This document shows positions 8,580-23,584 of a stretch of 23,584 nucleotides of DNA, one piece after another. This DNA comes from Thermotogota bacterium. Its GTDB lineage: Bacteria > Bipolaricaulota > Bipolaricaulia > UBA7950 > UBA9294. The stretch lies in NCBI GenBank assembly GCA_039679545.1, contig JBDKUT010000099.1, positions 1-23,584 of the forward strand, in the 5' to 3' direction. The notes under the pieces are model-generated. The model was given only the letters and a program-made list of their open reading frames with translations, searched no databases and was not told the DNA's origin. The first letter of the stretch is position 1; the number at the start of each line of letters is the position of its first letter. Both the position numbers and the translations under genes were made by a program.

Positions 8580-10730
8580 GTGTCAGACCTATCGATAGCC
8601 TTGGTGTGCGTGGTGGGAGGCTTCCTGGTCTTGTTGGTGCTTCTCCGCTCGATTCGGAGCATCGGACCGACGCAGGTGGGCCTCGTGCTGAAGCGCGTCA
8701 GCTTCAGGAAACTGAAGGGCGACGACCCGATCGCATTCCACGGCGAGGCAGGCTACCAGGCCGAGCTGCTCCGGGCCGGCCTCTGGTTCAAGTTGTGGCC
8801 GATCTACAAGGTCACCCGCCATCCCATGGTCCAGGTTCCTGCTGGCGAAATCGGCGTCGTGATTGCCCAGGTTGGCGGGAGCCTCAAGGAAGGGCAGAAG
8901 TCCGGAGTCTACAAGCCCATCTTTGGCGACTTCTCCGACGTTCGCGCGTTTGTCGACAACGGGGGTCAGAAGGGGCCGCAGCGGCCGACGCTACGCCCCG
9001 GCTCGGTCCTTGCCATTCACCCGGCGGCATTCCTCGTCCGCACGGCGAGCGGGATGTACGGGGTCCCGATCTCCAAGGAGGCGCTCGAGAAGGCGCGGGC
9101 GCTCCCGTCGGAGCGATTCAAGCAGGTCGTCATCCGGCCGCAGGTTGTCGTGGGCTCCGAACAGCAGGAGGTCGGCGCCCTGCACGTCCACGATCAGCTG
9201 ATCCAGAACGTCGAGAAGCGGAACGTGTTTGCCGTCGACGGAGGAGGCCGAAGCGAAGCTCGAGCCCCCGAGCCGCTGAGCCAGAAGGCGACGGCAGAGA
9301 CGGGCGGGCGCGCGTTCGAGGATCCGATGAAAGGTAAGGTCAAGCTCGTCGATGTGATCGGCATCGTGCGCGTGCACGAGGGGCCGCCGCTCGAGCCCGG
9401 CGACATCGCCTGCCGTATCGGCGGGTTCGACGACATCCGCAAGCGGGAAGAGACGGGGGCGACCGACGCGGAGCTTGCAGACCTGATCCTCGACAGCAAA
9501 GTGAAGCTCCATGACAACTACCAGGACTTCCAGGCGTTCCTCGACGCCGGCGGACGGATCGGGCTGCAGCACGACCCGCTCCTCTACGGGACGTTCAACC
9601 TGAACCCGTACCTGGTCGAGGTGGAACTCGTTCCGATGCTCGTTGTGGAACAGGGCCAGGTCGCCGTCATCAAGTCGTACGTCGGGCTCGTGCCGCAGGA
9701 CACGTCGGGCGAGGCGTTCCACTTCGGCACGCTCGTGCGGCCCGGGCATCGCGGCATCTGGCAAGAAACGGTGCGAACCGGCAAGTACGCGATCAACCCG
9801 CGCTGCTACGACGCAGAGATCGTGCCGACATCCATCCTTACCTTGAACTGGGCGACGCAGGTTTCCGAAGCCCACAAGTTGGATCAGCACCTGAGCCAGA
9901 TCGTGGCCAAGAGCCGCGAAGGCTTCGTGTTCAAGATCGATCTTCAGGTCCAGATCCACGTGCCGGACACGATGGCGTCGCGCGTCATCTCGGCAGTCGG
10001 AACGATGGAGAACCTCGTCAACGAGGTCCTGCAGGCGGCTGTGGGCAACCACTTCCGCGACAAGCTCCAGAGCATGCCCGCGATCCAGTTCATCGAGAAC
10101 CGCCAGAAGGTGCAGGAAGAGGCCTTCCACCACATCATGAACCAGCTTATGGTCTACAACGTCGATACGCGCGGCGTCTTCATCCAGGACGTCATCCTTC
10201 CGGAGGAGCTCACGAAAGTGCTCACGGAGCGCGAGATCGCGAACCAGCAGATCCTCACGCTGCAGAAGCAGCAGGCGGCGGAGACCGCGCGCATTTCGAC
10301 CGAGCAGCAGCGCGGACTCGCCGACCAGCAAGCCGCTCTGGCACGTTCGAGCGTCGGAATCGACATCGCCCAGAACACAGCGTCGGCTCGCATGCGCGAG
10401 GCGGACGGCGAAGCCACCTACCTCGAGAAGGTCGGCACCGCAAAGGGAGCCGAGGTTCGCGCCGTGGCGCTGGCCAAGGCGGACGGGTATCTGCGGCAGA
10501 CCGAGGCGCTCGGCAAAGAGGGCACGACGCTCGTTAACGTCGTTCAGGCGTTGGCGGCGAGCCAGCAGCCGTTCGTCCCCGAGGTCAACGTGTCGAGCGG
10601 CACCGGCGGGGATCAGGGTGCCATGAGCGCGTTCTTCGCGTCGTTGACTGGCCTTGCGCGAGCCGGGAAGCTGGGCGAAGTCCTGGCCGCCGTCGGCGTC
10701 ACGCCGGAAGCGAGCGCGAAGAAGCCGTAG
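8580..10730 (+). CDS. Large SPFH/band-7/flotillin-family membrane protein
   Basis: N-terminal TM; repeated modules (GYQAELLRAG, GPQRPTLRPG, GLQHDPLLYG, GIWQETVRTG); band-7 core KSREGFVFKIDLQVQIHV; Ala/Glu/Gln-rich coiled coil; GTG start with SD GAGGAGGG. Confidence 0.9.
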   Translation: MSDLSIALVCVVGGFLVLLVLLRSIRSIGPTQVGLVLKRVSFRKLKGDDPIAFHGEAGYQAELLRAGLWFKLWPIYKVTRHPMVQVPAGEIGVVIAQVGGSLKEGQKSGVYKPIFGDFSDVRAFVDNGGQKGPQRPTLRPGSVLAIHPAAFLVRTASGMYGVPISKEALEKARALPSERFKQVVIRPQVVVGSEQQEVGALHVHDQLIQNVEKRNVFAVDGGGRSEARAPEPLSQKATAETGGRAFEDPMKGKVKLVDVIGIVRVHEGPPLEPGDIACRIGGFDDIRKREETGATDAELADLILDSKVKLHDNYQDFQAFLDAGGRIGLQHDPLLYGTFNLNPYLVEVELVPMLVVEQGQVAVIKSYVGLVPQDTSGEAFHFGTLVRPGHRGIWQETVRTGKYAINPRCYDAEIVPTSILTLNWATQVSEAHKLDQHLSQIVAKSREGFVFKIDLQVQIHVPDTMASRVISAVGTMENLVNEVLQAAVGNHFRDKLQSMPAIQFIENRQKVQEEAFHHIMNQLMVYNVDTRGVFIQDVILPEELTKVLTEREIANQQILTLQKQQAAETARISTEQQRGLADQQAALARSSVGIDIAQNTASARMREADGEATYLEKVGTAKGAEVRAVALAKADGYLRQTEALGKEGTTLVNVVQALAASQQPFVPEVNVSSGTGGDQGAMSAFFASLTGLARAGKLGEVLAAVGVTPEASAKKP

Positions 10731-10827: not shown

Positions 10828-12126
10828 CTACGGCTCCACAACCCGCCCAATGAACAGGATCGTGTCCGTCGGGATGTCGCGGATGACGAAGAGGAACGGA
10901 CGGTCGATCGTGAGCGTCACGGATTCGCCCGGAATCGCGGTCACGTCGACGACGACGGCGGTCGCCGCGGCGGCCTCCGTACCGATCTCGTCGACCGAGA
11001 CGAACGCCTTGTGCAGCACGTTCGAGATGTAGAGGTCGTGCGCGCCATCGATGCCGGAGAAGTCGGCCGCGTCGGGGTCGAACGCGTCCTCCATCCCGAG
11101 CGCGCGGAGCGCGTCCACGAGCGACAGGGCGTAGTCGAACTCGAATTGCGGCAGGCCGAGGTAGACCCGGTGCTCCTCGAGCTGGCCGACGATCTCCTCG
11201 TACTTCTCGTAGGTCAGATCCTCCTCGAAGGACTCGAACCCGCCTACGTCCGGAACCAGCAGGAGCATCGCCAGCTTCCCGCCGTTGTACGGCAGCTCAA
11301 CGGCTTGGACGTCGCCGACCTGCGCGTACAAGGCCGTGATGGTCTGGTGCATCATCGCGAGCGAGATCGAGGACCCAGAGAGCGTCGTGAACGACTCGCT
11401 CTTCGTGTTGTCCTCGTCGAACGGGTCGAGCCACGGGGCTTTGAAGTAGATGGCGTTCGTCAAGACGAGGCGCGTTCCCGCGCTGACGCTGCCTTCGGGC
11501 AGGAGGTCCAGGACCCTGTCATTCGTCTGGTCGCTGACCCAGTTGTTGATTGTCGTCCGCGAGCCCTCGGGGTCGCCGGAGAAGTCGACGAGTCGCAGCC
11601 CGGCGCCGTAGCTCACAGCGAGGACGTCGAGGTAGCCGTCGCGGAACGGGAATCCCTGCTCGCCCCACACCGCGTTGACGATCGACAGCTCGAACCCATC
11701 GCCCTCGTACGGTTCTTCGAGCTCGTCGCGGCTGTTGAGCGTGAGGTCGACGGCGTTGAACGCTGGATGCAGCGCGTCCTGGGCGAGGTCGAAGTGGAGC
11801 GCGTCGGCCATCTGTGCTTCCGTTTCGCCGTCCGCGCCGGCGTACGTCATCGCGAGCGCCGACGAGATACTGAACGGCGAGAAGAAAACGTTCCCGTCGC
11901 CCGCAGCGATCTTGCCGTAGAGGGCGAAAGCGAACGCCCCGTTCCCCGCGGCGAGCGCAGCGGCGGCGTCGCCGCTCACATCGGGATCGAGGTCCCGCGC
12001 AAGGTTCGACTGGGCTACGGAGTCACTTGGAACGTCGGGCCACAGCCAGTCACAGCCCGAAAGAGCGACAGCCATCACGCCTACACTCACGACAAGAAGA
12101 ATCCTGAACCGCATCATCGATTTCAT
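10828..12126 (-). CDS. Serpin (serine protease inhibitor), predicted lipoprotein
   Basis: Lipobox ALSGC; NVFFSPFSISSALAMTYAGA; LVLTNAIYFKAPW; hinge EIGTEAAAATA; signature IDRPFLFVIRD. True start may be ATG 12117. Confidence 0.95.
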   Translation of the reverse strand: MKSMMRFRILLVVSVGVMAVALSGCDWLWPDVPSDSVAQSNLARDLDPDVSGDAAAALAAGNGAFAFALYGKIAAGDGNVFFSPFSISSALAMTYAGADGETEAQMADALHFDLAQDALHPAFNAVDLTLNSRDELEEPYEGDGFELSIVNAVWGEQGFPFRDGYLDVLAVSYGAGLRLVDFSGDPEGSRTTINNWVSDQTNDRVLDLLPEGSVSAGTRLVLTNAIYFKAPWLDPFDEDNTKSESFTTLSGSSISLAMMHQTITALYAQVGDVQAVELPYNGGKLAMLLLVPDVGGFESFEEDLTYEKYEEIVGQLEEHRVYLGLPQFEFDYALSLVDALRALGMEDAFDPDAADFSGIDGAHDLYISNVLHKAFVSVDEIGTEAAAATAVVVDVTAIPGESVTLTIDRPFLFVIRDIPTDTILFIGRVVEP

Positions 12127-16156: not shown

Positions 16157-16175
16157 CCCCTTGCGGGTGGAGCGC

Positions 16176-17300
16176 ATGCCGATAGACTCGTTCCGTATGC
16201 GACCTCCAACGCGCTGGGTCAGACGAACCCTCCTCCTCATGCCCGCCGTTCTCCTCGTCGCCGTCGGAAGTGCATCGAGCCCCAGCGATGTCGTGACCTT
16301 CGTCGACGCGCGCCTGGAAGACGCCGTTCGGGCGGCACTTGGCATCGAATCCGGCCCCATCCTCACCACCGACGCACTTCGCCTGGAGCGGCTCGAGGCG
16401 GTCACCGCGGAGATCACGCGCCTCGACGGCCTTGAGTCCTTCTTGAACCTGCGCGAACTGAATCTCGCCGAGAATCACATCAGCGATCTCAGACCCTTGC
16501 GAGGTCTCTCGAACCTCGAAACGCTCGTCCTTAAGAGTAATCGGATCGAGGACGTGACTCCGCTTGCCGGGCTCGTCCGCCTGACGAAGCTCGATCTCGA
16601 TTGGAACTCAATCGTCGATGTCGCGCCGCTCTCCGGTCTGACTCAGCTTCGCTTTCTCGGGCTTTGGGACAGTCGCGTTGGGGATGTCGGCCCTCTCGCC
16701 AACCTCCTGGAATTGCGCGAGCTGGGACTGAGCGGGTGTCCGATCGCCGACCCGCGCCCTCTCGGCCGACTGACCCACCTCGAGTGGCTCGGGCTACCCA
16801 ACACGGGAATCGACGACATCGATTTCGTCGCAACCCTGGTCGAACTCAAGAAGCTCAGCCTCGGAGAGAATCGGATCTCGGATCTGCGTCCCCTCGCGGG
16901 TCTTGTGGGTCTCGAGGGCCTCGGCCTGAGCGAGAACGCGATTCGCGACGTGACTCCGCTTGCGGGGCTCACGAACCTCCAGCGCCTCAGCCTGTGGAAG
17001 AACGAGATCGAGGACGTCTCGGCGCTTCGCGAGCTCATCCACCTTCAGAAGCTTTGGCTTGACCAGAACCCGACTCGCGACATCTCTGTCCTCCGCGAGA
17101 TGACGGATCTCTGCATCGTCGGATTGTCACAGACGCTGGTTGACGACCTCGCTCCCCTCGTGGCAAACAACGGCCTCGGTCCCGAGACCACGGTCGATCT
17201 CCGCGGGACACCCGCCGCTCTCCCCGGCTCGATCGCGGCGGACGCCATCGCTGCGCTCGAAGCGCGCGGTGTCACCGTCTACCACGAGGTCACGCCGTAG
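16176..17300 (+). CDS. Secreted internalin-like leucine-rich repeat protein
   Basis: Hydrophobic leader; N-cap VTFVDARLEDAVRAAL; about 11 22-aa repeats LxxLxxLxLxxNxIxDxxPL. Start uncertain (16176 or 16197). Confidence 0.9.
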   Translation: MPIDSFRMRPPTRWVRRTLLLMPAVLLVAVGSASSPSDVVTFVDARLEDAVRAALGIESGPILTTDALRLERLEAVTAEITRLDGLESFLNLRELNLAENHISDLRPLRGLSNLETLVLKSNRIEDVTPLAGLVRLTKLDLDWNSIVDVAPLSGLTQLRFLGLWDSRVGDVGPLANLLELRELGLSGCPIADPRPLGRLTHLEWLGLPNTGIDDIDFVATLVELKKLSLGENRISDLRPLAGLVGLEGLGLSENAIRDVTPLAGLTNLQRLSLWKNEIEDVSALRELIHLQKLWLDQNPTRDISVLREMTDLCIVGLSQTLVDDLAPLVANNGLGPETTVDLRGTPAALPGSIAADAIAALEARGVTVYHEVTP

Positions 17301-18531
17301 TCGTCTCCGTCCGCGGGTCCTCGACGTACTGGTTGTGGAAGATGAACAGCTGCGCCGAGTCGAAGTCCGTGAAGATGAGCTTCCACAGGTTGGCGAAGAT
17401 GTAGACCCACAGCATCAAGATCGGCATCGGATCCTGGCGGCTCGAGATGTCGTCGGGGACTCGGCGATCGGCCCACCAAAGCTTCCGCAGTTGGCGCTCG
17501 CCGGACCAGTCCTTGAAGCTTCCGAGGTAGCTCTCGAGCAGCCAGACGAAGTCGCCAAAACCCATCTTGGTTCGGGTTCCGATGCGCGTTCCGGGAAGCT
17601 CCGCGGGGGCGTTGCCCGCCGCAATCTCGAGCCATGCGGGCACCATGTCGCAGCCGCCGTGATACGCCATGGCGATCGCCGGCGTGATTCGGCAGTTGCC
17701 GTCGACAAGGAACGGCTTCCCCGTGCCTTCCTGGATCACGAAGTCGAATCCACAGAACCCGCTGAACCTGAGATGCTTCACGATCCTCGCCGCGGCCGCC
17801 TGGCATGCGGGATCCGCCATGCTCTCCCGGCACACGGTGGTCCCACCCGTCCGAGGCATGGTGCGAACGCCTTGGTACATCACCTCGCCGATCACGCGGC
17901 CACGATCGCACAGGTGAAGGGTGCACGTCGTCGGACCCTCGATCAGCTCCTGGATCATCGGAAGGTCGCCCTCTGTGAGTTTGTTGACGCGCACGACCTC
18001 CTCGTATCCCTTCTTCAGACTCGCGCGGTCGTAGACCTTTCGGAATCCTGCCGCGCCCGAGGTTTTGCGCATCTTGATCACGACAGGGAGCTTGACGGAG
18101 TCCATCGTCTGATTCGCTTCCGCCAGGCTTTGCGGCGCGAACGTTTGAGGTGAGTCGATGCCGAGTTCCGCGGCCAGAACGCCGAGCCGGGTCTTGTCGT
18201 GCAACGCCATCAGGCTCTCCGTTTCCATCATCGACGTCTTCGTCGCCGCCACGACCCGATCTCGGTAATGGCTCATCAGGATGATCTCTTCGTAGGAAGG
18301 AAAGTAGTAGTCATACTTCCCGGACTCCAACTCCCGCAGCAGCGCCTCGGCGTATTCGTGCGGGGAGTACCGCATGTTGGGAAGTGGAACCCTGCGCGTG
18401 ACGTACTTCGAGAACCCTGCGTAGGCCAGCCGATGGCCCTCAGCGGCGTAGACCTCATGCCCCAGCTCTCCAAGTCGGCGGACGACGTGAACGGCGGCCG
18501 GCTCAAATAGACCCGTGATCAACACTCTCAT
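17290..18531 (-). CDS. ATP-grasp domain protein (putative carboxylate-amine ligase)
   Basis: MRVLITG...GHEVYAAE pre-grasp domain; LHDKTRL, PVVIK, MIQELIEG, GFCGFDFV...FLVDGNCR. Overlaps the LRR gene 3' end by 11 bp. Confidence 0.87.
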   Translation of the reverse strand: MRVLITGLFEPAAVHVVRRLGELGHEVYAAEGHRLAYAGFSKYVTRRVPLPNMRYSPHEYAEALLRELESGKYDYYFPSYEEIILMSHYRDRVVAATKTSMMETESLMALHDKTRLGVLAAELGIDSPQTFAPQSLAEANQTMDSVKLPVVIKMRKTSGAAGFRKVYDRASLKKGYEEVVRVNKLTEGDLPMIQELIEGPTTCTLHLCDRGRVIGEVMYQGVRTMPRTGGTTVCRESMADPACQAAAARIVKHLRFSGFCGFDFVIQEGTGKPFLVDGNCRITPAIAMAYHGGCDMVPAWLEIAAGNAPAELPGTRIGTRTKMGFGDFVWLLESYLGSFKDWSGERQLRKLWWADRRVPDDISSRQDPMPILMLWVYIFANLWKLIFTDFDSAQLFIFHNQYVEDPRTETTTA

Positions 18532-19259: not shown

Positions 19260-19287
19260 TAGACACGAACTCTTCTCAGCATATACT
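19260..19287 (+). promoter_or_regulatory. Sigma70-type promoter for the riboswitch-led operon
   Basis: TAGACA (19260-19265), 16-bp spacer, TATACT (19282-19287); predicted start near 19294, just 5' of the aptamer. Confidence 0.6.
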
Positions 19288-19306
19288 AGCGGGTAGCGAA
19301 AGGTGT

Positions 19307-19412
19307 GGCTCTGAAAAGGGTAAACCTGCTGCAACGCAGGGGCACAAAGCTACGGGACCACGGTAACGGCAAGTACGAGGGGGAAGTCGGGGTCGGCCGG
19401 GCTGCCAGAGCT
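19307..19412 (+). ncRNA. Cyclic di-GMP-I (GEMM-I) riboswitch aptamer
   Basis: P1 GGCUCUG/CAGAGCU; GGUAAACC...GGGGCACAAAGC core; P2 CCUGC/GCAGG with a GCAA-containing loop; P3 with GACC/GGUC and 3' GCCGGGCUGCC. Vc2-equivalent ligand nucleotides G20 (19319), A47 (19346) and C92 (19405) are present. Confidence 0.9.
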
Positions 19413-19465
19413 GGGAGGGAAACAGGCTGTGGTGGCTCGGCTGCTCTTTGGGGCATGACGACGGA

Positions 19466-19503
19466 GGACGCCGCCGGACTTGGCGGGGTCCCCTTTCTCT
19501 TTT
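19466..19503 (+). terminator. Putative intrinsic terminator of the riboswitch expression platform
   Basis: GGAC-G-CCGCC/GGCGG-G-GTCC stem (19466-19491) then CCTTTCTCTTTT, about 50 nt before the first CDS. Confidence 0.6.
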
Positions 19504-19551
19504 CCCACGGGCGCCAAGCCGGCGGACGTGCAGCAAGGAAGGCGGAGAGCC

Positions 19552-19944
19552 GTGACGACAATCGACGAACGCGCTGTCACGACATCTACTGCGCGCAAGT
19601 TTGACGACCTGGCCGCGGCCTACCGGTCTGAGTGCGCGCACGGAGTTCCGATGTCGGTCCATGAACGATACGAGCGGCAACTCAGCTCTCTTCGCAGGAC
19701 GCTCCGCAGCGTTCCGACTCCCTGCCGTCTGGGCGATGTGCTCCAGCGCATGGGAGCGGTCGACGAGGAACACCTGACGAACGCGCTCGGCGTGCAGGCA
19801 GCAAGCGGGGGCGGGAAGCTACTCGGGGAGATCCTGATCGACCTTGGGTGGGCCAGCGAGCAAGCGATTCGGCACGCGGCCGAACTGCAAGCCGCGGCCT
19901 GTCAAGAGACCGAGGCGAGCATCGTGGGGGCAAGCAGGGAATGA
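19552..19944 (+). CDS. Stand-alone MshEN-domain protein (putative c-di-GMP receptor), 130 aa
   Basis: GTG after a purine-rich SD region; tandem motifs RLGDVLQRMGAVDEEHLTNALGVQ and LLGEILIDLGWASEQAIRHAAELQ fit RLGxx(L/V/I)(L/V/I)xxG(L/V/I)xxxxxLxxxLxxQ; no ATPase domain. Confidence 0.82.
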   Translation: MTTIDERAVTTSTARKFDDLAAAYRSECAHGVPMSVHERYERQLSSLRRTLRSVPTPCRLGDVLQRMGAVDEEHLTNALGVQAASGGGKLLGEILIDLGWASEQAIRHAAELQAAACQETEASIVGASRE

Positions 19945-19973
19945 CGAAGCGAGCGGAGGGCAAGGAGGCAGGC

Positions 19974-22900
19974 ATGAAGGTATGGGCGTTGCGGGGCTCA
20001 GTGTGGGTGGCCCTGCTCGTAGTCGCGGCCGCGGCGGGGTCCGCGCTAGGTGGAACAACGATCAACGTACCCACCCAGTACACCACGATCCAGGCGGCGA
20101 TCAACGCGGCGAGTGCTGGCGACACGATCGCGGTAGCAGCGGGAACGTACGCCGAGACACTCAGCATCTCGAAGTCGCTGAGCATCGTCGGTGCAGGAGC
20201 CCAGTTGGTCACGATCAATGTCGCGGGAAAGCCGGGGACGAACTCAAGCGGAATCTACGTGACCGCGAACGACGTCGCGCTTTCCGGCTTCACGCTCGTC
20301 GGGACGACGGCCTCAGCGTCTCCTCGGTACGGCATCAAGTACGGTGAAGTATCGGGCGGCGCTCTCTCCGATATCGTCGTTCAACAGATCTACCGCTCAG
20401 GGATCGACCTTCTTGGGAGCACCGACATGGCCGTGTCGAACGTTGTGTCGCAGAATAACGGAGGACACGGATTCTCGCTGACCGACTGCAAGAACATCAC
20501 GCTCTCGAATCTCACGACGAGGGGGAACGGGTGGCAGGCCGTGAGCGTAGCCACGTGGGGTTGCTACAGCTCGCTGGGAACGAGCGGGATTGTCTTCACA
20601 GGCACACTCGAGTTCACTGAGGTCTTCCAGCTCGAGCAGGGGAAGTACCCAAGCGGGCCGCCGGAGACGATCACGTTCAGCACGAACATAGCTGATGGAG
20701 CCGACGTCACGGTTCCTGCGGGGACGTTCTCCTATGCGCTCTTCGGAGACGACAACGAGGCGCCTTCCTACCAACGGGTGTACTTCGTCTCGAGCTTCGA
20801 CCAAGCGGCGACCGCGGCCGCCTATCCAGGAACGTTGGGTCACCTGAAGACAACAGGCCGCTACATCCAAAGCATCGTCGACCGAACGCAGCTATACGCG
20901 ACGCCCGGCTGCTCGGTGCGCGCCGCGGTTGAAGCCGGCCACGATGGGGATGTTGTGCACGTAGACGGGTCGACGTACACGGAGCAGGTCGTGATTGACG
21001 ACGACCTGAGTCTTGTCGGAGCCGGAAGCGGCACGATCATCGAGGCACCGAACACGCTGTCCGTCTACTTCCTAACCGGATCGAACAAGAACTACCCGAT
21101 CGTCTATGTCCACGACACGGACAACGCGCTGATCCAGGACCTGGTGGTCGACGGCCTCGGCAAGGGTAATGCGAACTACCGCTTCGTCGGCATCGGGTTC
21201 TACAACGCGGGCGGCACCGTCGACAACGTTGAGATCCGAAACATTGAGAACACGCCCTTCAGCGGCTCACAGCACGGCGTGGGCATCTACGCCTACAACG
21301 CCGATGGCACGCCGCGAACCCTGATCATCACCAGTTGCAGCATCCACGACTTTCAGAAGAACGCCATGGCGCTCCTGGGTGCAGGGCTCACCGTCGACGT
21401 GAGCGGCAACAACGTTGTGGTTGGAGAAGGCCGAACGGCGTCAATCGCTCAGAACGGAATCCAGGTCGGCAGCGGCGCCGGCGGGCGGATCGCAGACAAC
21501 GCCATCAGCGGCGTGTGGTACACCGGCACGTATTGGGGGTCGACCGGAATCCTGATCATTGGCGCAGAACCCGGCATCCAGATCCTGAGGAACACCGTCA
21601 CCGACTGCCAGATGGGAATCAACTCCGACACGGACCGGACCCTCGTCGAAGGGAACAGGGTCACCGGCTCCGAGTGGGCCGTCATCCTCTACGGCAACAA
21701 CAGCTCGGCCGTCGCGAACGACATCGAGGACAGCGCCTACGGCTTCTACGCCGACGGGGCCGAAGCGGAGATCGTCCGCAACGTGGTTCGGGGAGCGGAC
21801 TGGAGTGTGCTCCTGTATGGCGCGGACGCCGAGCTGCACTATAACAGCTTCTCAGGGAACGCGAACGGCTTCTACTCCGACCTTCCCGCCGACGCATCCC
21901 TGAACTGGTGGGGCGACTCCACGGGACCGGACTTTGACCAGGACATGGATGGATCCACGGAGTATGCGGGCCTCGGCGAGACAGTCTACGGCAGTGTGGT
22001 GTTCAGTCCGTGGCTGGCCCTTGACCCAGACGGCGACCCAAGCACGCCCGGCGTTCAGGTGACGGCTCCGATGCTGATCATCGTGGCTCCCGTGGGTCCT
22101 GAGCCGACGAACGGCTACCTCAACGCCGCAATCGTCGGGTCGAACAGCGCCGAGCTTCGGTACGCTGACACGATCTACGTCGAGCACGGAGCGTACGACG
22201 GGTCGGAGCCGATCACCCAGTCGGTAACGATCGTGAGCCAGCCGGGTTCCGCGTCCCACACGACCGTTACAGGCGCGATGAGCATCGGAAGCGGAGGTGT
22301 CAGCATCGGCCTGCCGCTTCAGGGACTGCGCATCAACGGCGACATCACCGTCGCGGATCTGGTCGACGCTGCCTCGGTCCACATCAACTGGTGCGACCTC
22401 TACGGGACAGCCACGAACAACGGCGACGGCACGCTCGACGCTCAGTACAACTTCTGGGGAACGCAGGAGGAAGCGGTCATCGATGCGCGCACGATTGGCG
22501 AGATCGACTACGCTCCGTACCTGCCGAAGAACGCGGACGATTCCTACGCGGACATCACGGCGCTCATCGACGCGGGCCTGGCTGGCAGTCTGAACGGCGC
22601 CGTCGACCAGCTGTGGACTTTGACCAGGATGGGCCAAGACGTCGGGACGTACATTGAGTACCAGGGCGTCGCCGGAGCCGGCGCGCTCCATGTCACTCCA
22701 TCGAACGGACAAGTGCTCGCGACCTTGCTTCCCGGTGGCGGCGGTGGTGCTGTCACCCAGACGGGCGTCGAGGGCGCGTACGTCGTCGGCGACAAGATCG
22801 CTGGGCAGATCCAGGTGACCGACCCAATGACCGGACTCCCGGTTTCCGACGCGATCGTCACGATCTCGCTCTTGAACTCGGAGTCGGGAGTTGTCTACTG

Positions 22901-23045
22901 GGGCGTCGCGACCTACGATGAGAACAGTGGTGGGTACGTATTTGAGGTGGATACGAGTGCGCTGGCGCCCGGAACCTACGAACTGATTATTCAGACGGAC
23001 GATGGAGAGACCCAGACGCTCTCAGTCGTGGTGGCGGAGGCGTAG
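19974..23045 (+). CDS. Large secreted right-handed parallel beta-helix (pectin lyase-like/NosD-type) surface protein with C-terminal Ig-like domain
   Basis: ATG after SD AAGGAGG (alternative in-frame ATG 19941 overlaps the MshEN stop); signal peptide; three cap motifs like IQAAINAASAGDTIAVAAGTYAE; Asn/Gly-rich repeats; DASLNWWG and DAQYNFWG motifs; GGGGG linker and terminal beta-sandwich (DTSALAPGTYELII). Confidence 0.88.
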   Translation: MKVWALRGSVWVALLVVAAAAGSALGGTTINVPTQYTTIQAAINAASAGDTIAVAAGTYAETLSISKSLSIVGAGAQLVTINVAGKPGTNSSGIYVTANDVALSGFTLVGTTASASPRYGIKYGEVSGGALSDIVVQQIYRSGIDLLGSTDMAVSNVVSQNNGGHGFSLTDCKNITLSNLTTRGNGWQAVSVATWGCYSSLGTSGIVFTGTLEFTEVFQLEQGKYPSGPPETITFSTNIADGADVTVPAGTFSYALFGDDNEAPSYQRVYFVSSFDQAATAAAYPGTLGHLKTTGRYIQSIVDRTQLYATPGCSVRAAVEAGHDGDVVHVDGSTYTEQVVIDDDLSLVGAGSGTIIEAPNTLSVYFLTGSNKNYPIVYVHDTDNALIQDLVVDGLGKGNANYRFVGIGFYNAGGTVDNVEIRNIENTPFSGSQHGVGIYAYNADGTPRTLIITSCSIHDFQKNAMALLGAGLTVDVSGNNVVVGEGRTASIAQNGIQVGSGAGGRIADNAISGVWYTGTYWGSTGILIIGAEPGIQILRNTVTDCQMGINSDTDRTLVEGNRVTGSEWAVILYGNNSSAVANDIEDSAYGFYADGAEAEIVRNVVRGADWSVLLYGADAELHYNSFSGNANGFYSDLPADASLNWWGDSTGPDFDQDMDGSTEYAGLGETVYGSVVFSPWLALDPDGDPSTPGVQVTAPMLIIVAPVGPEPTNGYLNAAIVGSNSAELRYADTIYVEHGAYDGSEPITQSVTIVSQPGSASHTTVTGAMSIGSGGVSIGLPLQGLRINGDITVADLVDAASVHINWCDLYGTATNNGDGTLDAQYNFWGTQEEAVIDARTIGEIDYAPYLPKNADDSYADITALIDAGLAGSLNGAVDQLWTLTRMGQDVGTYIEYQGVAGAGALHVTPSNGQVLATLLPGGGGGAVTQTGVEGAYVVGDKIAGQIQVTDPMTGLPVSDAIVTISLLNSESGVVYWGVATYDENSGGYVFEVDTSALAPGTYELIIQTDDGETQTLSVVVAEA

Positions 23046-23070
23046 TGGCGGCCATCAGCAAGGGGGAGGC

Positions 23071-23584
23071 ATGAAGAGACGGGCATGGGTGCTCGGACTG
23101 GCGACCGTGCTTCTGGCGACGGGAGTCGCCTACGGCGCCTCGACGAGCGTGACGTGGTCTTCCTGGCTGCAGATTGCCCTGCAGCCGGCGTTCGGACTCG
23201 GCGGGTTCGACTCGGCTCTTACGGTCGGCTACTCGATCGGCGGCTGGGGGTTGTCCTCGACGGCCCTCCTTAACAGAACCGGCCTCTGGGATGTCTTCTT
23301 CGACGCAGGCGGAGCGCTGGGTGGATTCGCGATCCGATCGATCGCCGACTTCGACGCGACGGCGCCGGCCCTACGCGCTTGGCTCTCCTCTCTGAGCACG
23401 GCAATCGCCGGGGTCCGCTTCTACGGGCTTCTCATGGTCGATGACGTGAACGCCGACACAGCCGCCGACCCATGGTTTGGAACCGGCGCTGCGCTCGGAG
23501 CCATCTGGGAGGGAGACAACCTCGCAGTCTGGACCCAGATCCAGTTCAACATGACGGATTCGTCGAGGTACGTCTACCTCTACG
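23071..23584 (+). CDS. Secreted beta-strand-rich protein, putative outer-membrane beta-barrel (partial)
   Basis: Not in ORF track; open to window end. SD GGGGGAGG; MKRRAWVLGLATVLLATGVAYGA signal peptide, then amphipathic aromatic/Gly strands (SALTVGYSIGGWGLSSTALL, DVFFDAGGALGGFAIRSIADFD, AVWTQIQFN). Confidence 0.75.
   Translation, partial: MKRRAWVLGLATVLLATGVAYGASTSVTWSSWLQIALQPAFGLGGFDSALTVGYSIGGWGLSSTALLNRTGLWDVFFDAGGALGGFAIRSIADFDATAPALRAWLSSLSTAIAGVRFYGLLMVDDVNADTAADPWFGTGAALGAIWEGDNLAVWTQIQFNMTDSSRYVYLY

Follow-up and report, generated by a model that had tools for sequence, protein, structure and literature searches.

In a lineage of Bipolaricaulota, the 3′ strand of a c-di-GMP-I aptamer is predicted to hide the Shine–Dalgarno (SD) sequence and start codon of a sequence-variable leader open reading frame (ORF) that reaches a separate terminator, an arrangement that is new here and was found in 19 of 19 leaders. 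For the locus described below, we judge as evenly balanced the proposal that it is a three-gene surface operon under a c-di-GMP ON switch, which would work through a leader-ORF relay, with a small hairpin-MshEN protein as feedback element. The window, that is, the whole stretch of DNA analysed, comprises 23,584 nt (positions 1–23,584, forward strand) of contig JBDKUT010000099.1 in assembly GCA_039679545.1 (genome G000), named Thermotogota bacterium at NCBI and placed by GTDB in Bacteria; Bipolaricaulota; Bipolaricaulia; UBA7950; UBA9294. It was compared with 151 genomes of the phylum (G-numbers). The features of the locus are as follows.

19260..19287, + strand: promoter-like site, sigma70-type, TAGACA-16-TATACT (10/12 consensus matches)
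19309..19409, + strand: c-di-GMP-I (GEMM-I) aptamer (RF01051 cmscan, 55.2 bits)
19390..19445, + strand: predicted anti-aptamer hairpin, which pairs with the aptamer 3′ strand and masks the leader SD and start codon (folding)
19413..19418, + strand: SD-like GGGAGG in the hairpin loop (anti-SD duplex −10.7 kcal/mol)
19429..19458, + strand: predicted leader ORF of 9 codons, GTG..TGA (SD/start geometry)
19463..19503, + strand: intrinsic-terminator-like hairpin (19463–19493) plus U-rich tract, separate from the aptamer (folding, terminator scan)
19552..19944, + strand: first gene, 130-aa protein with N-terminal helical hairpin and MshEN_N module (NF053729, model)
19974..23045, + strand: second gene, 1023-aa predicted secreted protein (Beta_helix and NosD matches)
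23071..23584, + strand: third gene, cut short by the contig end; 5′ part only, predicted to encode an outer-membrane beta-barrel of about 430 aa when whole (orthologue model)

A first-pass annotation, made from the letters alone, had described a complete GEMM-I aptamer, and cmscan with RF01051 agreed, covering the full model (1–87) well above the gathering threshold of 35 bits (E 1.7e-8). By RNA family the element is a c-di-GMP-I riboswitch, with ligand binding and switching predicted from its sequence. In a pattern parse, the ligand-contact bases were G, A and C in 19 of 19 leaders including the window's, indicating the c-di-GMP type and not the cGAMP type, which has A at the first position; we take these positions to correspond to G20, A47 and C92 of Vc2. 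G000 also carries nine GGDEF matches and seven c-di-GMP-I riboswitches. The annotated promoter stands as a motif, and a −35/−10 pair lies no more than 80 nt upstream in 15 of the 19 homologous leaders, but the site alone is no better than chance in the window (1 found, 0.8 expected).

The anti-aptamer hairpin has a folding energy of −35 kcal/mol (z −4.49, 0 of 200 shuffles), and 8–13 aptamer bases pair downstream in 19 of 19 homologous leaders. An anti-SD is present at the 3′ end of the G000 16S. An SD with a start codon at ΔG ≤ −6 was found in 19 of 19 hairpin-MshEN leaders versus 1 of 19 RHH-type control leaders, in which the hairpin itself is the terminator; counts over the 19 are not independent, because the leaders are related (median identity 62%; single linkage at 65% puts 17 of the 19 into one cluster). 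Their mean SD-plus-start strength was reached by none of 200 shuffles. When the SD was held fixed, a start codon (10 GTG, 5 ATG, 4 TTG) lay 2–11 nt downstream in all 19, against 10.5 expected, across 11 genera, and the same SD/start was present in 5 of 5 held-out leaders preceding surface-protein paralogues without an MshEN gene. The leader frame comes to within 10 nt of the terminator, or runs through it, in 19 of 19 leaders; the other frames do so in 14 and 13 of 19. Its stop in the window shares bases with an ATG at 19455 and comes 4 nt ahead of the terminator; in two of the five held-out leaders the stop overlaps the ATG of the main gene. Leader ORF lengths range from 9 to more than 120 codons, the frame running into the MshEN gene in two leaders, and comparison of the peptides across the 19 leaders revealed no common sequence or length and no conserved regulatory codons. 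The terminator-like hairpin of the first-pass annotation was recovered (−22.8 kcal/mol, z −2.97), and it folds with probability 1.0 whether the aptamer is locked or free; a plain terminator scan of the window gave three calls, the number expected by chance.

The occurrence of the SD and start codon in all of these leaders, as opposed to one control leader, suggests an ON switch relayed by ribosomes. Without ligand, the region around the leader start would be held by the aptamer 3′ strand, the terminator would fold and transcription would end near 19500; bound c-di-GMP would free the hidden ribosome-binding site and start codon, so that translation of the short leader ORF could block the terminator just downstream and turn the operon on. 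In E. coli, termination of ~90% fell to <10% when a stop codon lay 5 bp before the terminator (Li et al., PMC4824070), and a terminator 30 bp past the start lost ~10% of its efficiency on translation unless a pause coupled ribosome and polymerase (PMC4824070). Because short-range coupling in E. coli needs such a pause, the relay stays at a suggestion. It is also counted against the relay that the purine-rich loop of the hairpin is able to pair with the 5′ arm of the terminator. In an ON switch made of RNA only, of anti-antiterminator design, this segment would be freed when ligand locks the aptamer and would pair there while transcription proceeds; the SD and start codon would then be incidental, or left over from an earlier switch at the level of translation. 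Pairings of 6–10 bp between the two can be drawn in most leaders, the cognate pairing ranks second (window) and first (G097) of 19, and ribosome coupling, which can be weak at this distance (PMC4824070), is not required. We nevertheless consider this alternative unlikely, while giving it appreciable weight: cognate pairings over the 19 leaders were no better than non-cognate ones (−11.5 versus −11.8 kcal/mol; Wilcoxon p 0.44) and therefore no covariation was seen, the terminator keeps its probability of 1.0 with the aptamer locked, and both the start codons in 19 of 19 leaders and the two stop/ATG overlaps are left unexplained.

The leader-ORF relay has partial counterparts. In pyrBI-type attenuation, nearby ribosomes can keep a terminator from acting (cited in PMC4824070), and here the geometry would be compatible with control by ribosome position in 19 of 19 leaders; classical attenuators, however, sense through leader codons or nucleotide pools, whereas here initiation would be gated by a second-messenger aptamer, on an ORF of variable sequence that overlaps an intrinsic terminator. 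The B12 switches of M. tuberculosis (metE, ppe2; PMC11260477) have ligand-gated uORFs that modulate the downstream gene; they share a ligand-gated short ORF with the window, but are translational OFF switches acting by re-initiation. It is established that c-di-GMP riboswitches precede genes for surface proteins and adhesins in C. difficile (McKee 2018, PMC6200980). The class I aptamer, RF01051, is shared, with contact bases of the c-di-GMP type here. The class I switches of C. difficile are mostly OFF, whereas the window switch is predicted to be ON, and in the window aptamer and terminator are separate elements, the latter preceded by the masked SD/start and leader ORF.

The small protein encoded by the first gene scored 43.7 bits against NCBIfam NF053729, an MshE-related c-di-GMP model with a cut-off of 38, whereas a Pfam search found no family at E ≤ 0.01, PF05157 included; the annotated MshEN match was thus obtained with one profile and not with the other. 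The MshEN_N module occupies residues 59–113, and the model (pLDDT 84.4) shows the four-helix MshEN_N fold and superposes on MshE at 0.9–1.4 Å (5htl_B: Z 10.1, rmsd 1.4, 58 residues aligned). With the NF053729 score and this fold, the MshEN identity was upheld, and the protein likely binds c-di-GMP. It is not stand-alone, as had been assumed, because a conserved N-terminal helical hairpin (residues 4–52, about 45 residues, invariant Y24, G31 and S35) is present, which has no annotation and recurs in 29 of the 151 phylum genomes; the protein represents an unannotated small MshEN fusion family, hairpin plus MshEN. Tandem 24-residue motifs, with the deviations given below, and the four-helix fold are shared with V. 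cholerae MshE (5HTL) and Thermus PilF GSPII-B (8PDK), but the protein has no ATPase, MshEN_C or enzyme domain, carries the fused hairpin, and has an inter-motif spacer of 7 residues versus 5 in the definition of Wang 2016. MshEN_N-only proteins are tabulated in that study (PMC5013675), whose two supplementary files contain no 'Acetotherm' or 'RHH' text.

Further deviations are a Gln at one hydrophobic position of motif 1 and a Leu for the Arg that starts motif 2, and a relaxed 24-residue motif matches only 13 of 33 hairpin-MshEN proteins. Together with the patchy distribution of the family and an early stop in one copy (L233), these would fit a degenerate MshEN that no longer binds c-di-GMP, its gene being carried as a passenger in a surface locus of the ordinary kind, under a riboswitch. 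We regard this as the least probable of the readings considered: none of the 33 sequences departs from the two motif glycines (G61, G92) or from Q82, the same motif-2 Leu occurs in Thermus PilF GSPII-B, which was solved with c-di-GMP bound (8pdk), and the model fits MshE closely.

The hairpin-domain profile located 33 hairpin-MshEN places. The aptamer lies directly upstream in 19 and via an RHH-MshEN gene or remnant in 2; 6 are at contig ends, 5 are without an aptamer and 1 was left out of the neighbourhood check. Four hairpin-MshEN genes, those of G028, G124, G073 and G091, are without a riboswitch, the first three also without an adjoining surface gene. A GTDB-wide scan added four loci, with the aptamer upstream in 4 of 4. 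That the gene directly follows this leader type in 19 places, that the terminator folds in both RNA states, and that the hairpin has surface-like invariant residues and Arg-rich helices could indicate that the c-di-GMP-bound protein is itself an antitermination factor, or recruits one, acting on a constitutive terminator as a positive-feedback AND gate. This appears highly improbable, given that the same leader type and terminator occur in G025 (L204) with no hairpin-profile match there, that four hairpin-MshEN genes have no leader, and that the hairpin fold search gave generic matches (Z ≤ 7.8) with no RNA-binding fold prominent.

A surface-family gene comes next in 17 of the 33 places, and full-length, at least 48%-identical C-terminal modules of this family were followed by the barrel gene in 11 of 11 cases. 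Neighbourhoods in relatives preserve the complete order of riboswitch, hairpin-MshEN, surface protein and barrel in five genomes. However, surface-protein genes without an MshEN gene upstream were found, for example with the barrel in G017 and with the riboswitch in G025, G038 and G040, and the required role in display control that had been proposed for the MshEN protein is therefore weakened. As in the adaptor option of the first-pass annotation, the protein might work in trans, relaying c-di-GMP to a secretion ATPase or the barrel and so triggering export of the surface protein. Such a role would suit the tight gene order kept in the five genomes, and it is from pilus and secretion ATPases that MshEN domains are most familiar (Wang 2016, PMC5013675). 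We find this improbable. PF00437 (T2SSE ATPase) had no match in G000, which is 93.6% complete, with a control search that matched 13 of 14 genomes, and among the 151 genomes it was near-full-length only in G142 and partial in G133. In addition, no hydrophobic segment was found in the small protein, so it should be cytoplasmic, apart from a barrel in the outer layer, and the surface genes just listed do without it. In the proposed operon, the hairpin-MshEN protein probably stands outside the display machinery and is an accessory feedback element, serving as a c-di-GMP sink whose conserved hairpin may contact some partner.

In C. difficile, pilB1 is on the same transcript as the pilus genes headed by the riboswitch Cdi-2-4. 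The latter controls type IV pilus genes (McKee 2018, PMC6200980), and PilB1 is listed in the supplementary MshEN table of Wang 2016 (PMC5013675), in a column that apparently gives predicted binders. Because riboswitch-controlled pilus genes are paired there with an MshEN-listed protein, double sensing of c-di-GMP is, by analogy, not wholly new and has a likely precedent. Cdi-2-4 has a class II aptamer and the MshEN domain there is on the assembly ATPase, whereas the window has a class I aptamer, an MshEN domain on a small separate protein and, in our search, no such ATPase.

The stop of the first gene overlaps an ATG at 19941 in frame with the second gene, as had been noticed, although the ATG at 19974, after GGAGG, is the likelier start. 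The second gene encodes a signal peptide, right-handed beta-helix repeats and a C-terminal module of ~320 aa that is common to its family and ends in an Ig-like domain, in keeping with the annotated beta-helix surface protein; a PxKF match was weak and under the cut-off. With ligand present, this large protein would be made and probably displayed on the outer sheath. The reported 25-nt gap to the third gene was exact. Beyond the contig end, the third gene resumes on G000:C113 (24-nt exact end overlap; 87.7% collinear with G097:C89) and is followed by a terminator, which closes the three-gene unit.

A Pfam search of the barrel gene found no family. Its N-terminus is hydrophobic (a signal peptide) and its C-terminal W is invariant in 20 sequences. 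The model was built on the 91%-identical G097 orthologue rather than on the third gene itself (pLDDT 80.7; Z 15.0, rmsd 4.3 over 319 residues against a SusC-type barrel) and has about 22 long strands, beginning at mature residue 2, and no plug, supporting the annotated beta-barrel as a predicted outer-membrane protein. A TonB-dependent transporter was rejected: there is no plug-sized N-terminal domain, and the model aligns from residue 1 with only the barrel part of such transporters (their chain ranges start at 135–276). Two-partner secretion systems (TpsA/TpsB) and autotransporters likewise place a beta-helix exoprotein beside a barrel. TpsB identity was rejected on the lack of POTRA and on 22 strands versus the 16 of Omp85 barrels, and a classical autotransporter on the stop, the gap and the second signal peptide, passenger and barrel being separate genes in relatives too. 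Co-inherited with the surface protein, the plug-less barrel is probably its anchor or exit route.

The Bipolaricaulota are a deep-branching, toga-bearing phylum whose first closed genome was reported to lack recognisable genes for pili or adhesins (Hao 2018) and whose first isolate appears only in a 2025 preprint. For this phylum the locus is a tangible candidate for a surface system controlled by c-di-GMP; it also adds a small MshEN fusion family that is new, and an expression platform of a riboswitch that is open to inexpensive tests by reporter fusion. If true, the relay would add a mechanism to riboswitch gene control: a translation switch would be turned into operon-wide transcription control, and some 'constitutive' terminators behind aptamers would be switched by ribosomes. 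The fullest version, to which we lean slightly less than to its alternatives, is that an aptamer for a second messenger would control the loading of ribosomes onto a leader ORF free of content, with no task but to run over the terminator. It would head a lineage-specific surface system in which a plug-less 22-strand toga barrel holds a modular exoprotein, with a hairpin-MshEN receptor of a new kind feeding back on the same signal.

In Thermotoga, the gene for the SLH-domain protein Omp-alpha lies beside the barrel gene omp-beta (PMC10160955). Like the third gene, these toga barrels are lineage-specific and without a Pfam match, the likeness being drawn by the neighbourhood of a paralogue only; unlike omp-beta, the third gene stands under a riboswitch next to the gene for a large secreted beta-helix protein. 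The paralogue in question, in G000, directly follows an SLH-domain gene.

The window, which makes up all of contig C99, derives from a genome of 2.35 Mb that is 93.6% complete, and the homologues of its proteins, where named, come from Candidatus Bipolaricaulota. The locus comprises the following features:

19260-19287, plus strand, promoter-like site, not above chance by itself
19309-19409, plus strand, c-di-GMP-I aptamer (RF01051; score 55.2 bits, cut-off 35)
19413-19418, plus strand, GGGAGG, Shine-Dalgarno (SD)-like, in the loop of the anti-aptamer hairpin
19429, plus strand, GTG start of a 9-codon frame, where the hairpin arm starts; its stop lies 4 nt before the terminator
19463-19493, plus strand, terminator-like hairpin
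19552-19944, plus strand, gene for the small MshEN protein
19974-23045, plus strand, gene 2, a predicted secreted beta-helix protein
23071 to contig end, plus strand, gene 3, a predicted outer-membrane barrel

The riboswitch had been proposed in the first-pass annotation and was recovered by the RF01051 search as the sole Rfam family in the window. The three co-oriented genes had been joined by an ATGA overlap and a gap of 25 nt; both are present in the sequence, and the proposed gene architecture was upheld apart from the terms 'stand-alone' and 'ATPase adaptor'. In addition, 15 of 19 homologous leaders have a comparable -35/-10 pair upstream.

The locus is real and conserved among relatives. 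The complete four-part order of aptamer, small MshEN gene, surface gene and barrel was found in five genomes (G000, which carries the window, G097 over two contigs, G009, G109 and G137) from four genera and two families. At the 33 places matched by the profile of the small protein's N-terminal hairpin, an aptamer lies directly upstream in 19 and beyond an RHH-MshEN gene (a sibling family with a ribbon-helix-helix-like domain) or its remnant in 2; the remainder are 6 contig ends, 5 places without an aptamer and 1 not examined. Downstream, a surface-family gene follows in 17, the contig breaks off in 6, and the neighbours of the remaining 10 are of another kind or unexamined. Four further hairpin loci from a GTDB search all have an aptamer upstream: one is a complete leader, gene and surface gene, one carries an early stop, and the other two encode the hairpin without MshEN behind another leader, of a long-hairpin type. 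Surface genes without the MshEN gene have an aptamer directly ahead in 5 of 20 regions, and surface genes with neither also exist, for example in G017, where the barrel is present; because surface genes occur without it, the small protein is probably accessory. In G124, a decayed aptamer-like remnant, recognized by eye, precedes a hairpin-MshEN gene without an adjoining surface gene (L047:2587-2900). Further window genes (10828-12126 on the minus strand, 8580-10730 on the plus strand, and 16161-18531) encode an SPFH/Band 7 protein, a serpin that carries an export signal, and leucine-rich-repeat and ATP-grasp proteins; the block of leucine-rich-repeat gene, ATP-grasp gene and 73-aa ORF precedes the riboswitch also in G097 and G116.

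No Pfam family matched the small protein, but NCBIfam NF053729 (MshE-related c-di-GMP-binding domain) matched residues 59-111 with 43.7 bits against a threshold of 38, and Thermus PilF and Vibrio MshE were its top PDB sequence matches. An AlphaFold model built from 33 sequences (pLDDT 84.4) superposed on the MshE-c-di-GMP structure with Z 10.1 and rmsd 1.4 over 58 residues. A relaxed form of the Wang 2016 motif is present in 13 of the 33 hairpin-MshEN family members; the small protein deviates in that Leu opens motif 2 and the spacer is 7 residues. Given that G61, G92 and Q82 are invariant in the family, and that the same Leu starts motif 2 in PilF GSPII-B, whose structure was solved with ligand, the modelled protein is likely to bind c-di-GMP. 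Look-alikes in the ESM Atlas (score 0.90) were unnamed clusters from which no function was gained.

The MshEN protein had been described as stand-alone, but residues 4-52 form an additional helical hairpin domain in which Y24, G31 and S35 are invariant and a P-M-S-V turn is near-invariant. MshEN is known in diverse fusions, and proteins that consist of MshEN_N only are recorded in Wang 2016. A hairpin-only profile picked up 29 of the 151 genomes of the phylum and, from a set of 1.84 billion proteins, 46 representatives; it also matched 24 GTDB loci, by title 11 Bipolaricaulota/Acetothermia, 12 uncultured Thermotogae/Thermotogaceae and 1 uncultured bacterium; weak matches in G142 and G094 may be due to chance. 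The hairpin occurs without MshEN in 6 of 18 representatives inspected, so that it is an independent module; such short MshEN-less proteins are P0030, P0037, P0043, P0049, P0056 and P0063, and others lie at loci L222 and L227. In a fold comparison that took the hairpin as part of the whole-protein model, matches to CsoR/FrmR-like repressors, Mediator and coiled coils (Z<=7.8) were generic and were set aside.

A trans adaptor had been one suggested role of the small protein, which could mean an adaptor for a PilB-type secretion ATPase. No T2SSE ATPase was found in G000 (93.6% complete), and near-full-length ones among the 151 genomes occur only in G142 and partly in G133, which argues against this role; a PF00437 tally of 63/151 was not taken as PilB because it consisted mostly of short P-loop matches. 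G142 differs from the other 150 genomes searched in its 27 aptamers and its large number of near-full-length PilB/GspE ATPases, and it may represent a distinct lineage or contamination (5%). The c-di-GMP repertoire of G000 comprises 9 GGDEF matches, 7 proteins with an HD-GYP motif (pattern search) and 7 RF01051 aptamers. One of its contigs carries a second small MshEN gene, an RHH-like fusion between two c-di-GMP-I aptamers (G000:C124:24159-24729; L003, L005, L008). The RHH-MshEN family is present in 117 of 151 genomes (E<=1e-15), with RHH_1 matched in 3 of 10 members, and a tree on the MshEN part separates it from the hairpin family (97/98), with few columns and unsettled bootstrap. In G045, riboswitch, RHH-MshEN and hairpin-MshEN form one run (L067:179-1098), and in a second such run the RHH-MshEN gene is apparently decayed (L063:7331-8357), hinting that the two receptors may act together. 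Many aptamers of the phylum, such as those at L111, L114, L112, L143 and L170, have a second aptamer-like half behind them, and then pilin-like secreted genes.

In the leader of the window, the 3' strand of the aptamer can pair with the following 35 nt (-35 kcal/mol, z -4.5). The terminator is separate from the aptamer and folds whether the aptamer is locked or unlocked, so something else must open it; in RHH-MshEN leaders the terminator directly overlaps the aptamer. We propose that c-di-GMP would gate the masked 9-codon frame, whose translation would override the terminator. This leader-ORF relay was assessed on the 119 aptamers whose anchor and flank were usable (5 lacked an anchor and 3 had flanks that were too short), with 19 leaders defined by the downstream gene as the test set and 19 RHH-MshEN leaders as the control. 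An SD plus start at dG<=-6 was found in 19/19 family leaders versus 1/19 controls; among the other leaders it was found in 32 of 81, and many of these are direct translation starts. None of 200 shuffles attained the mean; when the arm was shuffled around an unchanged SD, a start codon was expected in 10.5 leaders, and all 19 have one. In 19/19 the frame either crosses the terminator or comes to within 10 nt of it, compared with 14 and 13 for the other frames. The 19 leaders are mutually related, a point against the relay. Held-out leaders ahead of surface paralogues had the SD and start in 5/5, and in two, L201 and L213 (G038 and G040), the main ATG is overlapped by the stop of the leader frame and a clear U-tract terminator was not seen, which suggests that leaders of this type can also act by translational coupling. 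In-frame fusion to MshEN was rejected as a general rule, with only 8 of 16 determinable leaders in frame and 2 lacking a stop.

Alternatively, the freed segment could itself serve as an antiterminator, with no ribosome involved; however, the cognate pairing had no advantage and no covariation was detected (p 0.44). Both models predict an ON switch. Against the relay, Li et al. (PMC4824070) report that a terminator at a long gene's end was strongly suppressed by a stop 5 bp ahead of it, but that suppression was only ~10% for a terminator 30 bp past the start codon, except where ribosome and polymerase are coupled by a pause; such a pause would therefore be needed for the relay. Many relatives score higher on RF03167 (GGC variant), but changed ligand specificity was rejected because the contact base parses as A in 19/19. 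The relay is the most testable new element, and we consider the mechanism as a whole just as liable to be wrong as right.

A search of mostly open-access literature yielded no account of the hairpin-MshEN family, the operon or a c-di-GMP leader-ORF/terminator relay. Surface proteins under the control of riboswitches have been described (McKee 2018); C. difficile is a likely precedent for sensing c-di-GMP both through an RNA and through an MshEN protein; and the riboswitch-gated uORFs of the M. tuberculosis B12 switches are translational OFF devices, in contrast to the ON switch predicted here. A 2022 riboswitch review, in the part available, names uORFs only for fungal splicing switches. Further related literature comprises PMC12943098, PMC6092417, bioRxiv 2025.11.21.689855, PMC10118264, PMC10086821 and CdbA (PMC7156744).

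Gene 2 encodes a signal peptide and beta-helix repeats. Its C-terminal module of ~320 residues is present in 37/151 genomes and stays constant among relatives, with variable N-terminal parts (beta-helices, FG-GAP propeller, MBG repeats and unannotated domains), a pattern that would be typical of displayed surface proteins. Extension beyond the contig end located the rest of gene 3 on contig C113, which shares an exact 24-nt overlap with the end of the window and shows 87.7% collinearity to G097:C89; the product has a C-terminal Trp, and a terminator-like hairpin follows, as in G097. Neither the window fragment nor the full barrel matched a Pfam family. The G097 orthologue is 91% identical over the shared part, and its model (pLDDT 80.7, 22 long strands) best resembles TonB-dependent transporters in their barrel region (Z 15.0, rmsd 4.3, 319 aligned), with no plug or POTRA domain found in it. 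The barrel follows all 11 full-length C-terminal modules of at least 48% identity. Elsewhere in G000, an SLH-domain gene precedes a barrel paralogue (C20, L012:1499-3877), a candidate Omp-alpha/Omp-beta-like toga pair whose order is like that of Thermotoga omp-alpha/omp-beta (PMC10160955), and a third paralogue lies at C152:16873-18258. At L198-L200 and L203, surface paralogues without a gene-3-type barrel are followed by a different gene of ~405 aa, whose product terminates in an alternating hydrophobic strand and possibly represents another barrel family.
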